Source: an uncultured Gemmatimonadota bacterium (GTDB lineage Bacteria > JAAXHH01). Taken from it: a stretch of 64,000 nucleotides of DNA. Below the pieces are notes generated by a model. The model saw only the letters and a program-made list of their open reading frames with translations. It ran no database searches and had not been told where the DNA came from. How positions within the stretch are numbered: the first letter of the stretch is position 1; each line of letters opens with the position of its first letter. Of this stretch, positions 36,108 to 44,007 are shown one piece after another. The DNA lies in NCBI GenBank assembly GCA_951812955.1, contig OX638340.1, forward strand, positions 1,504,001-1,568,000. The letters are read 5' to 3'. Both the position numbers and the translations under genes were made by a program.

Positions 36108-37880
36108 TTATTTTGCCTGAGGAATGCGTTCGCGAAGAGTGTTTGTAAGGTCTTTAGCCTGTTCCAGCATGCTTTCAGTCATATTCTGTCTAACCAATTC
36201 CAGGTTATGAACCGCTTTGCTGTCTCCACGCTCCGCTGAGAGGCCGATCCAGGCATAGGCCTTCACGAGATCCCGCATGGCGCTGTCGCCGCTGAAGTGT
36301 ATGATACCCATATTCGTCATGGCTTCTATTTTTCCCTGTTCGGCGGCCTTCAGATACCAGTTTACCGCCTCACTGTCGTTTTCGGGTACTCCTCTGCCCT
36401 TGTCGTAATACAGACCGAGATTGAACTGTGCCATTTCATGACCCTGGTCTGCAGCCGCGCGAAACCACCGTAACGCTTCCGGATGGTTTGTCGGCCTGCC
36501 TTCACCGAAGGCATACATGACGCCTAGATTGTACCGGGCGCCCACGTGCCCCGCCTCAGCGGCCATGCGATACCATCGATACGCTTCGAACCAATTCTGC
36601 ACCACGCCATCTCCCATGTGGTACATATACCCCAGTCTCTCCTGCGCGTCATCGACACCCTGATCAGCAGCCAGGCGATACCATCGAACAGCTTCGGCAT
36701 TATCCTCGGGTACGCCTCTACCTCTGTCGTAAATGAATCCTAAGAGATACTGGGCTGACTTGTCACCCTGTTCCGCGGCTTTGCGAAACCAGAGGTGTGC
36801 TTCAGTTTTATCTTCGGGCACGCCATTGCCTCTGTCGTAAATCAGCGCTAAACTATACTGGGCTTCCGTATGGCCCTGCTCGGCCGCCTTGCGGTACCAG
36901 TGAGCTGCCCTGGTTGCGTCCTCCGGCACACCATCACCACGGGCATACCTGGCCGCAAGATAGTACTGGGCGTCCGCATGATCCTGCTCCGCGGCCTTAA
37001 GGTACCAGTAAGCCGCTTGATCTGAGTCCTCCGGCACACCATCGCCGAAGGCATATCGCGCTGCCAGATAGGTTTGGGCCTGGGCGTTCCCCTGCTCGGC
37101 GGCTCTGCGATACCAGTAGGCGGCCTGCGCGGCGTCCTCAGGTACGCCCTCGCCCTGCGCATACATGATGCCCAGGTTGATCTGAGCTGCATCATGATCC
37201 TGTTCCGCGGCTTTACGATACCAGTAAACAGCCTTTACATCGTCTATCGGCACGCCATCTCCGGTATCGTAAAAAAGGCCCAGAAAATACTGGGCAGAAT
37301 CAAATCCCTGTTCAGCAGCCCGGGTGAACCACGTTAATGCCTTCGCGGTTTCCGCCTCCACTCCGGTACCGTACTTATACATGTATCCGATTCTGACTTG
37401 TGCATATTCATATCCCTGTTCGGCGGCTTTTTCGAACCAGCCAAATGCCACGGAAGCATCCTCGTCGACACCGACTCCGGACATGTACATGGTACCCAAA
37501 CGGTACTGGGCTCTAGCATGATCCTGTTCGGCGGCCTTGAGGTACCACCTCGCCGCCACGGTTTCATCCTTTGCTACACCTCTGCCCCCAGCATACATGA
37601 ATCCGACATTGTACTGGGCATCCGCGTGGCCCTGATCGGCAGCTTCCGTAAACCACTTGAACGCTTCCTCGTAATCTTGATCCACTCCGGCACCGTCATA
37701 GTACATGTCACCAAGCGAGTTTTGCGCCTCGGCATCGCCTGCCAGCGCCGCTTGCCGAGTTTCCTCAAGGTTGGCTTCCTCCTGGCCAACCACCTGTGCG
37801 GGTAAAAACACCGAGACGACAAGAGCAAGTACCATGAATCCAGCCAACCGCCGAGATCGTACAATAGATTGCTTACCCAA
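36108..37880 (-). CDS. Secreted Sel1-like repeat (SLR/TPR-like) protein, 590 aa, about 15 repeats
   Basis: A signal-anchor N-terminus is followed by repeated 36-aa units of the form AxxWYRKAAEQGxAxAQYxLGxMYxxGxGVxxD throughout. Confidence 0.9.
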   Translation of the reverse strand: MGKQSIVRSRRLAGFMVLALVVSVFLPAQVVGQEEANLEETRQAALAGDAEAQNSLGDMYYDGAGVDQDYEEAFKWFTEAADQGHADAQYNVGFMYAGGRGVAKDETVAARWYLKAAEQDHARAQYRLGTMYMSGVGVDEDASVAFGWFEKAAEQGYEYAQVRIGYMYKYGTGVEAETAKALTWFTRAAEQGFDSAQYFLGLFYDTGDGVPIDDVKAVYWYRKAAEQDHDAAQINLGIMYAQGEGVPEDAAQAAYWYRRAAEQGNAQAQTYLAARYAFGDGVPEDSDQAAYWYLKAAEQDHADAQYYLAARYARGDGVPEDATRAAHWYRKAAEQGHTEAQYSLALIYDRGNGVPEDKTEAHLWFRKAAEQGDKSAQYLLGFIYDRGRGVPEDNAEAVRWYRLAADQGVDDAQERLGYMYHMGDGVVQNWFEAYRWYRMAAEAGHVGARYNLGVMYAFGEGRPTNHPEALRWFRAAADQGHEMAQFNLGLYYDKGRGVPENDSEAVNWYLKAAEQGKIEAMTNMGIIHFSGDSAMRDLVKAYAWIGLSAERGDSKAVHNLELVRQNMTESMLEQAKDLTNTLRERIPQAK

Positions 37881-37977
37881 ATCCCAACTCCCATTTGGTT
37901 GGTAGTTCAGAGCTTCGTCTGATCGACGCTCGACGAACGTCAGTCTGTCGTTATCCTATCGTCGCGGGACGCGACCG

Positions 37978-43060: not shown

Positions 43061-43092
43061 CAGTTGCGAAGTGGGACGCTAACCCAAGTGGT

Positions 43093-44007
43093 TCAACCAG
43101 ATTCCATCTCCTGCGCCCATTTTCTCAGAGGAACATCGTCCAGGTTATCCGAAAGCCAGTGCCGGGAGGCAGGATGAAAGTCCGGATCCGGACCCATCGG
43201 ATCACCTTCTGGAGACAGGGCACCCAGCAACTGCCGCCGGATCGGTGAGCTTCTTTCGATGAGTGCGGGATCCTGCACGTCGAAGTCGGTGGGCCGAAGC
43301 CAGCGGTAGTGGTATCCCACGTGCATGATCTTTCGCGTCTTTCGCGACAGGTTCGGGCCGACGCAGTGCCATACCGCTGTACGCCACAACACCGCCGAAC
43401 CGATGGGCAGCTTGAGTTCGACCGCACCTTCCGGATCGACCCCATTTTCCCGCCCGAACAATTCGACGGGCCTGCGTCGATGGCTGCCCGGCACCAGCCA
43501 CAAGTTGCCGCAGTTGGATTCGGTCATGTCGTACAGCACATAGAAGACCTTGACCTCCATGAACGGTAGGCGTCCATCCAGAGAAGGCGCCATAAACAGG
43601 TCATCGCTCGCCAGGTCGGGATGCCACCCGACATTGCGGTATCCTGCCTCGTGGTCCTCGCCCTTGCCGACACCCGAAATGCGGTCCTTCAGGTCCTCCG
43701 GATAGGGAGGCCGAACGTCCAGGTGCGTGGTCCGGATCTGGATATTCCAACCGATTGAGTCCACCACTAAAGGCAATATACGCGGATGATCGATGAGGTC
43801 GAGAAAGGCCTCGTGATGCGCCAGGGCATTTCGCACCGCAAAGGGTTCATCGGATCCCAGGCCTGTCTTCGACCGAATCCGGTCGCCAACCTCGTCGATG
43901 GCCCGGAGTAGGCGGTCAAGTTCCGGTTGGTCAAAGAATTTGTCGAGGACGACAAAGCCTTTATCGTCAAAGTCTTTGGCTTGTTGGGGTGTCATTGCGA
44001 GGGGCAT
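43093..44007 (-). CDS. Phytanoyl-CoA dioxygenase (PhyH) family Fe(II)/2-oxoglutarate-dependent oxygenase
   Basis: The length is 304 aa. The metal-ligand region is VGWHPDLASDD and a distal His context is WLVPGSHRR, typical of PhyH-like enzymes. Confidence 0.7.
   Translation of the reverse strand: MPLAMTPQQAKDFDDKGFVVLDKFFDQPELDRLLRAIDEVGDRIRSKTGLGSDEPFAVRNALAHHEAFLDLIDHPRILPLVVDSIGWNIQIRTTHLDVRPPYPEDLKDRISGVGKGEDHEAGYRNVGWHPDLASDDLFMAPSLDGRLPFMEVKVFYVLYDMTESNCGNLWLVPGSHRRRPVELFGRENGVDPEGAVELKLPIGSAVLWRTAVWHCVGPNLSRKTRKIMHVGYHYRWLRPTDFDVQDPALIERSSPIRRQLLGALSPEGDPMGPDPDFHPASRHWLSDNLDDVPLRKWAQEMESG

Follow-up and report, generated by a model that had tools for sequence, protein, structure and literature searches.

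LpnE and EnhC of Legionella are Sel1 proteins that are delivered or act in the context of an intracellular pathogen. Among bacteria that live with sponges, the Latescibacterota (PAUC34f) are already known to be rich in eukaryotic-like proteins (ELPs), including SEL1 proteins, and in sulfatases (PMC12993501, PMC7081726, PMC8163846), and sponge symbionts are reported to be rich in ELPs, defence genes and lateral transfer (PMC8163846, PMC12993501). Direct host-cell evidence for ELPs (e.g. modulation of phagocytosis) is limited to the ankyrin type (references cited in PMC8163846). Here we describe a 64,000-nt stretch of contig OX638340.1 (the window), where two adjacent genes for Sel1 proteins, Sel1A and Sel1B, fill a slot between purK and the gene of an aminoglycoside phosphotransferase (APH)-fold kinase. 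According to our joint reading, to which we give a probability of about 70%, this is a composite region: the Sel1 pair is the cargo of a hotspot, exported and plausibly engaging the host, and the other genes are conserved and independent of it.

Gene families were assigned by profile searches (Pfam, NCBIfam), and the cargo of the slot was annotated with Pfam and PADLOC. All the open reading frames (ORFs) listed in a preliminary description of this DNA are found at their coordinates, and their families are confirmed by the profile searches. The comparison covers 20 genomes including the window; 13 related loci were extended via exact-protein look-ups of the kinase orthologues. Related loci carry L-numbers, where L001 is the same as L081 and L008 the same as L092/L093. 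Two blocks are conserved in the relatives, ABCF-TrxR-PurE-PurK on the left and kinase-sulfatase-PhyH-SBP (solute-binding protein) on the right. The left block ends with purK (N5-carboxyaminoimidazole ribonucleotide synthase, 34909-36060, plus strand) and the right block starts with the kinase (40219-41310, minus strand). Because these two genes converge, the variable interval lies between their 3' ends. In the window the slot covers 36039-40218 and is filled by a 4.2-kb cassette with Sel1A (36108-37880, 590 aa, Pfam Sel1 E 6e-146) and Sel1B (37978-40050, 690 aa, Pfam Sel1 E 9e-183), both on the minus strand. In the 13 related loci, purK and the kinase are between 0.6 kb and over 10 kb apart. 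In the relatives without the Sel1 cassette, DNA homology to the window ends at 36036-36038 and restarts at 40217-40221, i.e. the breakpoints are about 22 bp before the purK stop and at the kinase stop codon.

At least eight cargo states are found in this slot. The Sel1 cassette is present in 4 of the 20 genomes (the window, L006 with four genes, L011 and L088), and defence-type cargo in ten. For three of these ten (L002, L012, L013) the cargo is a complete PsyrTA system (PsyrT 977 bits, PsyrA 475 bits), for two (L003, L090) a PsyrA fragment with a GGACT gene, for two (L004, L085) an OLD-family AAA_15 ATPase (AriA/OLD/GajA-like) with GGACT, and for three (L001, L007, L091) an EVE-domain / NmeDI-type restriction endonuclease (EVE + REase_II). 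GGACT alone occupies the slot in two genomes (L009, L087), two more are essentially empty (L010, L086), and the last two hold either two unknown ORFs (L005) or an island of about 14 kb with FHA-trypsin, VWA, MotA/ExbB, PP2C, Ser/Thr kinase and M48 genes (L008). The GC content of the cargo is 0.41-0.57, compared with 0.62-0.65 in the flanks. In a neighbour-joining tree of the left flank the carriers of Sel1, PsyrTA and EVE-REase are each found in two or three separate clades, and the nearest neighbours of the window (L001, L002) hold other cargo. The slot is an accessory-gene/defence hotspot flanked by core genes. The Sel1 cassette itself is accessory and compositionally foreign; the GC at third codon positions (GC3) is 0.58 in Sel1A and 0.54 in Sel1B, against 0.74-0.83 in core genes.

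A 181-208-aa GGACT/AIG2-like gene is located directly downstream of the kinase in 6 of the 20 genomes (L003, L004, L009, L085, L087, L090), either alone or alongside defence cargo. It is absent from the window.

Identity to the window is mosaic along the region. L085 is 95.6% identical over kinase-sulfatase and 86-90% in the flanks, with OLD + GGACT as cargo. L086, where the slot is empty, reaches 95.3% over the left flank. In L011 the last 83-90 bp of the kinase gene occur twice, once on each side of the 4.75-kb Sel1 cassette (L011 11822-11904 and 16654-16736), an insertion scar that is visible by comparison with the empty sister L010. Contiguous alignments show that the window, L006 and L088 share a homologous purK-Sel1A junction, so that together with the L011 scar there are at least two junction types. 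No direct or inverted repeats bracket the cassette in the window, its slot has no integrase-like ORF, and tRNA and Rfam scans of the window return nothing, i.e. there is no tRNA-linked island. For these reasons an integrative mobile element was considered and rejected; only L011 has the 83-90-bp duplication. Scans of viral contigs with both Sel1 proteins find background-level relatives (31-47%) and no sign of phage carriage. Cargo would be exchanged mainly by homologous recombination through the conserved flanks, because the breakpoints are identical, the identity is mosaic, and the window has no integrase, tRNA or flanking repeats. Occasional illegitimate insertion may add to this, as in the L011 scar.

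The lineage of the window is indicated by purK, whose orthologues are 83-95% identical (amino acids) in 13 species-representative metagenome-assembled genomes (MAGs) labelled Candidatus Latescibacterota or Gemmatimonadetes. The next-best matches reach at most 66% and belong to other phyla. The isolate names of several related MAGs look like sponge or coral samples. A metagenome scan with the kinase gave four loci, and two sets of matching metagenome contigs have sponges as their source, Aplysina aerophoba (MKWU) and Petrosia ficiformis (LXNJ) (PMC5099237). With Latescibacterota-like MAGs and sponge-metagenome contigs as its relatives, the sponge-associated lineage guessed in the preliminary description is borne out.

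Sel1A and Sel1B are members of the Sel1-like repeat (SLR) proteins, PF08238. The Pfam Sel1 profile (cut-off 30.7) scores 470 bits over 14 stretches in Sel1A and 587 bits over 17 stretches in Sel1B, and a custom repeat hidden Markov model, built from the two proteins themselves, finds 15 and 18 units, respectively. The units have a strict spacing of 36 aa (108 nt) and occupy the entire mature proteins, with no other domain above the Pfam cut-off. The two had been called giant; 590 and 690 aa are however ordinary lengths, exceeded by thousands of Sel1 proteins. A solved Sel1 protein is matched with E 9e-92. The closest solved relatives include the secreted or host-interacting proteins 4bwr (E. 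coli CFT073 c5321, which we take to be EsiB) and 1ouv (H. pylori), as well as eukaryotic SEL1L; PDB 6deh, presumably LpnE, is matched with E 1e-56. As the sequences are sufficiently identical to Sel1 solenoids of solved structure, the fold can be regarded as fixed. Searching the whole database with Sel1A gives 7455 matches at E<=1e-30, which are generic Sel1 arrays at 35-55% identity, many of them in fusions with kinases, caspases or peptidases; this search carries no information on the origin of Sel1A. In Sel1A the adjacent units 7 and 8 are 75% identical, suggesting that units may be turned over locally. Neither further Sel1 genes nor further sulfatase genes are found elsewhere in the window.

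Signal peptides were judged by a heuristic that uses the n-region, the Kyte-Doolittle (KD) hydropathy of the h-region and the cleavage residues. Both N-termini have a basic n-region, an h-region with a KD value of 2.3-3.2 and a predicted site, VVG|QEE or SAA|QES, where small residues at -3/-1 precede Q-E. The Sec-type N-terminus is shared by all seven Sel1 orthologues checked, in agreement with the signal peptides proposed earlier for both proteins. The motif SRRLAGF raised the question of a Tat signal in Sel1A, which is unlikely given the very hydrophobic h-region and the RM that replaces RR in the L011 orthologue. With a predicted Sec signal and a single type of domain, Sel1A and Sel1B would fit the secreted or periplasmic type of SLR proteins (Hcp / c5321).

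In most of the orthologues in L006, L011 and L088 the signal peptide is separated from the first Sel1 unit by a Pro/Glu/Thr-rich repetitive linker (e.g. TAQESPSTETGPEPSGTETTQEPP), which the copies in the window do not have. One of the L006 genes (gene a) has a signal peptide of the B type on a body of the A type, an arrangement that suggests recombination between the paralogues.

From what is known of other Sel1 proteins, Sel1A and Sel1B would be exported at least to the periplasm, and their solenoids would act there or beyond as protein-binding scaffolds. In the proposed mechanism they would be strain-variable eukaryotic-like factors that engage sponge proteins. Binding of host proteins, as has been proposed for ELPs at large, is our leading hypothesis, and by analogy the role they most plausibly have. 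Several observations weigh against the joint reading. A Sec signal proves periplasmic export at most; it does not prove that a protein is released to the host. Arrays of Sel1 repeats are found everywhere, in free-living bacteria too, so the fold alone is no proof of host interaction. The host association of most of the related MAGs is inferred from isolate names, and the searches revealed no integrase, tRNA or phage relative to account for the mobility of the cassette. Finally, dN/dS gives no signal of positive selection or of an arms race on Sel1A, although this is a weak test with dS near saturation. The dN/dS of Sel1A against its L006 orthologue is 0.17, a mild relaxation compared with 0.09 for purK, and as dS is about 0.96, i.e. 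near saturation, the value is only a rough sign of purifying selection.

The same facts would suit proteins that serve the envelope machinery of the bacterium itself as periplasmic adaptors or regulators, like ExoR, AlgK, MotX and MerG, and do not act on the host. This is the main rival, and we consider it unlikely. A Sec signal by itself delivers to the periplasm, free-living bacteria commonly have Sel1 arrays, and the dN/dS of 0.17 points to purifying selection. There are also partial NCBIfam matches. Sel1A scores 312 bits against MerG (cut-off 350) and Sel1B 383 bits, a score that exceeds the cut-off but that we do not read as membership because it is summed over 11 repeat stretches, and ExoR, MotX and AlgK also match, each under its own cut-off. 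However, the Sel1 genes are accessory and foreign in codon composition, no partner genes (exopolysaccharide, flagellar, mer) accompany them, and orthologues differ widely in their number of repeats (13 to 24), as one would not usually expect of a fixed component of a machine. These points weaken the rival.

The genes to the right of the slot show a different pattern of inheritance. The kinase matches PF01636 with 78 bits (cut-off 23; E 1.7e-21), and its motifs HADLHVGN (HxDxxxxN) at 238 and DFD at 258 are invariant in 14 homologues. It is 74-88% identical in the 13 related loci, and the family is almost confined to the clade: about 55 clusters are at least 71% identical, followed by a drop to below 40%. 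The nearest solved structures are an aminoglycoside phosphotransferase and an amicoumacin kinase, and NCBIfam equivalogs all score far under their cut-offs, e.g. homoserine kinase with 71 against 271. Fold and motifs make it a predicted small-molecule kinase of the APH fold, restricted to this lineage. The Ser/Asp-rich tail that had been attributed to it exists as a segment, but it is an N-terminal low-complexity leader (residues ~6-34), the length of which varies between orthologues. Many of the orthologues also have a second, variable Pro/Ser-rich low-complexity insertion of up to about 45 aa in the N-lobe (alignment columns 165-205), which is short in the copy of the window.

The sulfatase (41511-42971, plus strand) matches PF00884 with 143 bits (E 1.6e-41) and has an SGSH_C domain. 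CSPAR at 54-58, followed by ASFYTG, is the C-x-P-x-R motif, and together with the fold it assigns the protein to the Cys-type, formylglycine-dependent (S1) sulfatases by sequence. Its identity in the relatives is 88-97%, with a range of 89-93% in the 13 related loci. The nearest solved structures are carrageenan, GlcNAc-6- and choline-sulfatases, and no NCBIfam equivalog cut-off is reached. The heuristic finds no hydrophobic N-terminus or signal peptide, and the enzyme is thus predicted to be cytoplasmic. Its substrate is probably a small sulfated compound that is imported, and not an extracellular glycan. PhyH (43093-44007, minus strand), a putative Fe(II)/2-oxoglutarate dioxygenase of the PhyH family, matches PF05721 over the full profile (50.6 bits, cut-off 22; E 4e-13), with HxD at 129-131; it is 85-91% identical in the relatives, with 85-89% in the 13 related loci, and matches solved structures weakly (E 1e-3). 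Neither the kinase nor PhyH has a Sec-type N-terminus by the heuristic. The SBP gene (SBP_bac_8, 44096-45196, minus strand; PF13416 E 6e-39) is absent from the preliminary description and encodes a protein that is secreted according to the same heuristic. It is co-directional with PhyH and lies 88 bp upstream. The two genes are neighbours in every relative whose sequence extends this far, apart from L013, where no PhyH match is found beside the SBP gene. PADLOC gives no meaningful match to a defence model for the kinase, the sulfatase, PhyH or the SBP.

The preliminary description had joined the Sel1 pair, the kinase, the sulfatase and PhyH in a single host-interaction or glycan-scavenging locus. 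The genes are indeed adjacent within 8 kb, the whole 36-48 kb stretch has a GC content slightly below that of the remainder of the window, and enrichment in sponge symbionts is known for sulfatases as well as for ELPs (PMC7081726, PMC5649159). Coupling of these genes is nevertheless quite improbable. Kinase-sulfatase-PhyH-SBP is kept in nearly all of the 20 genomes and Sel1 in just four, and since Sel1 is variable while the genes of the right flank are conserved, the five genes do not form one unit. Their strands alternate, and in relatives unrelated inserts are present at kinase|sulfatase and at sulfatase|PhyH. A role in glycan scavenging is further disfavoured by the missing signal peptide of the sulfatase, and the locus contains no glycoside hydrolase, permease or outer-membrane transporter, nor a TonB/Sus-type partner. 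An extracellular sulfatase of the polysaccharide-utilisation-locus type was rejected for the lack of a hydrophobic N-terminus and because its only neighbours are the kinase, PhyH and the SBP. All four genes of the right block are conserved in this lineage, belong to separate transcription units and are inherited independently of the cassette.

A slot that in relatives holds PsyrTA, an OLD-family nuclease or EVE-REase invites the idea that the Sel1 cassette is itself anti-phage, e.g. by excluding phages at the surface or in the periplasm, and Sel1 proteins do occur occasionally in operons with Abi/HEPN genes (PMC3710099). We find this very improbable, as PADLOC gives just weak repeat-level matches to PtuA (31 and 26 bits) with no single stretch passing, no nuclease, ATPase or other effector partner is present, and the exported pure-repeat architecture is unlike any known defence system.

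The preliminary description also proposed that the two Sel1 genes arose by tandem duplication and share highly similar repeat DNA. The repeat alignment gives 46% identity between the proteins, which equals the repeat background, as the mean repeat-to-repeat identity is 0.42 between the genes and 0.43 and 0.42 within them. The repeats of Sel1A and Sel1B are not collinear. Their 108-nt DNA units are 60-80% identical, and Tandem Repeats Finder (TRF) reports sparse hits, i.e. two short stretches of 73-74% in Sel1A and zero in Sel1B. Sel1A is collinear, repeat for repeat, with its orthologues in L006 (73%) and L088 (76%), where single units reach at most 92%. Sel1B is the orthologue of B-type genes with 22-24 repeats in L088 (63%), L006 and L011; compared with the L088 gene its ends are collinear, and it is without about five N-terminal units and the Pro/Glu/Thr-rich linker. 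A recent tandem duplication with homogenisation, to which the adjacency of the genes on one strand and their common 108-nt period might point, can thus be dismissed as extremely improbable given the divergence of the repeats and the separate upkeep of A-type and B-type orthologues in L006, L011 and L088. The order purK - A - (extra genes) - B - kinase is common to all four Sel1 carriers, so the A/B duplication would be older than the divergence of these genomes. An ancient event of this kind is possible, and on sequence comparison Sel1A and Sel1B are old paralogues.

Insertions are found at other sites of the neighbourhood as well. Between PhyH and the sulfatase there is PsyrTA in L086 (4890-8331), a 481-aa unknown protein in L085 (6837-8282) and three cytochrome-c3-like/unknown genes in L087 (6210-8326). 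Between the kinase and the sulfatase, L002, L010 and L011 have inserts of 1.3-2.7 kb accompanied by a duplicate of about 104 bp of the sulfatase 5' end. Past the SBP gene, genes for type I HsdR, NOV_C, PIN, SLFN/AlbA_2 and AAA_15 are located in L087, L091 and L092. Judged by this predicted gene content, the entire neighbourhood acts like a defence region with several slots.

Among the non-coding features, the AT-rich spacer upstream of Sel1B (40051-40218) contains one promoter-like site (40112-40084, minus strand) and shows no conservation in the relatives at the blastn level. Consensus promoter and terminator scans give no excess over the shuffle expectation. In the divergent kinase/sulfatase promoter region, 4.7 copies of a 19-nt unit with the consensus TGCGTGAATCACGATGAAC are repeated in tandem (41381-41469; TRF score 94, 82% matches). 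Among the relatives, the unit is confined to the closest ones; there are two copies in L001 and L081, a single exact one in L085, and in L086 a degenerate one with 4 mismatches. The array may be an iterated operator or result from a young expansion of the microsatellite type. Beyond the SBP gene lie a 1-kb AT-rich stretch (45197-46188, GC 0.45), one strand of which lacks ORFs of at least 80 aa, and a gene for a 166-aa signal-peptide protein without a family match (46189-46689, minus strand). Both are conserved in L086 (94% DNA identity).

Two other repeat proteins are encoded in the window. The ankyrin-rich protein that had been noted is present at 58912-61233 (plus strand), but it is a presumably cytoplasmic fusion protein 19 kb away and not a member of the cassette. 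Its 773 aa comprise N-terminal extracytoplasmic function (ECF) sigma-70 regions 2 and 4 (Pfam Sigma70_r2/r4) followed by about 480 aa of ankyrin repeats (Ank families), and the sequence contains no transmembrane segment and no signal peptide. Such a fusion is an unusual architecture for a sigma factor, which may be regulated through its ankyrin repeats. At 23413-25686 (plus strand), a 757-aa protein consists of an MFS transporter (residues ~35-380) fused to C-terminal HEAT/armadillo-type repeats.

The presence or absence of the cassette among syntenic genomes is a natural contrast that can be used for testing Sel1 function in the host. Adjacency should not be mistaken for function here, as the four genes from the kinase to the SBP make up a set of their own, conserved and specific to the lineage. 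A wider idea, which we offer tentatively and hold to be doubtful, is that exported Sel1 ELP cassettes and anti-phage systems are interchangeable cargo of one hotspot economy in sponge symbionts, with anti-phagocytic and anti-phage factors circulating together. If this were true, defence hotspots could be mined for new symbiosis or anti-phagocytosis factors.

Compared with known systems, the closest proteins of the same build are c5321 (4bwr, E 3e-87) and Hcp (1ouv, E 9e-36), which like Sel1A and Sel1B are stand-alone exported pure-Sel1 proteins. They are shorter (about 270-470 aa), come from animal pathogens, and are the only ones of this group with known host targets. The repeats of Hcp are disulfide-bridged, which is not the case for the Sel1 proteins of the window. 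LpnE and EnhC are alike in being Sel1 arrays, in their case in a bacterium that survives phagocytic eukaryotic cells; unlike in Legionella, there is no evidence here of a dedicated secretion system or of an intracellular lifestyle. For the sulfatase, the arylsulfatase clusters of sponge symbionts (Slaby et al. 2017, PMC5649159) likewise place an S1 sulfatase beside an ABC-type solute-binding protein. In contrast to those clusters the sulfatase here is predicted to be cytoplasmic, permease, ATPase and dehydrogenase genes are absent, and the neighbours are PhyH and the APH-fold kinase.

The slot itself resembles the core defence hotspots of P. aeruginosa (cDHS, PMC10250203) and E. coli (PMC10121019), which have a fixed core pair and interchangeable, low-GC, defence-rich cargo with a patchy phylogenetic distribution. 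It differs from cDHS-type hotspots in that one recurrent cargo is an exported repeat cassette and that there is no integrase or mobile-element backbone. The ELPs described from sponge symbionts (ANK, TPR, Sel1, LRR) belong to the same lineage and domain class, and some have signal peptides (PMC12993501, PMC7081726, PMC8163846). Those papers give domain counts per genome and, unlike here, no defined hotspot and no alternation with defence systems. Sel1 ELPs in sponge Latescibacterota, the enrichment of sulfatases and defence genes, lateral transfer and core-gene-flanked hotspots are thus already published. The new part appears local and modest, namely a hotspot where an exported Sel1 cassette alternates with anti-phage systems, documented with an empty site and a scar. 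It turns an observation on domain counts into a concrete, testable picture, in which at least one Sel1 cassette is strain-variable cargo at a defined slot, competing with anti-phage systems.

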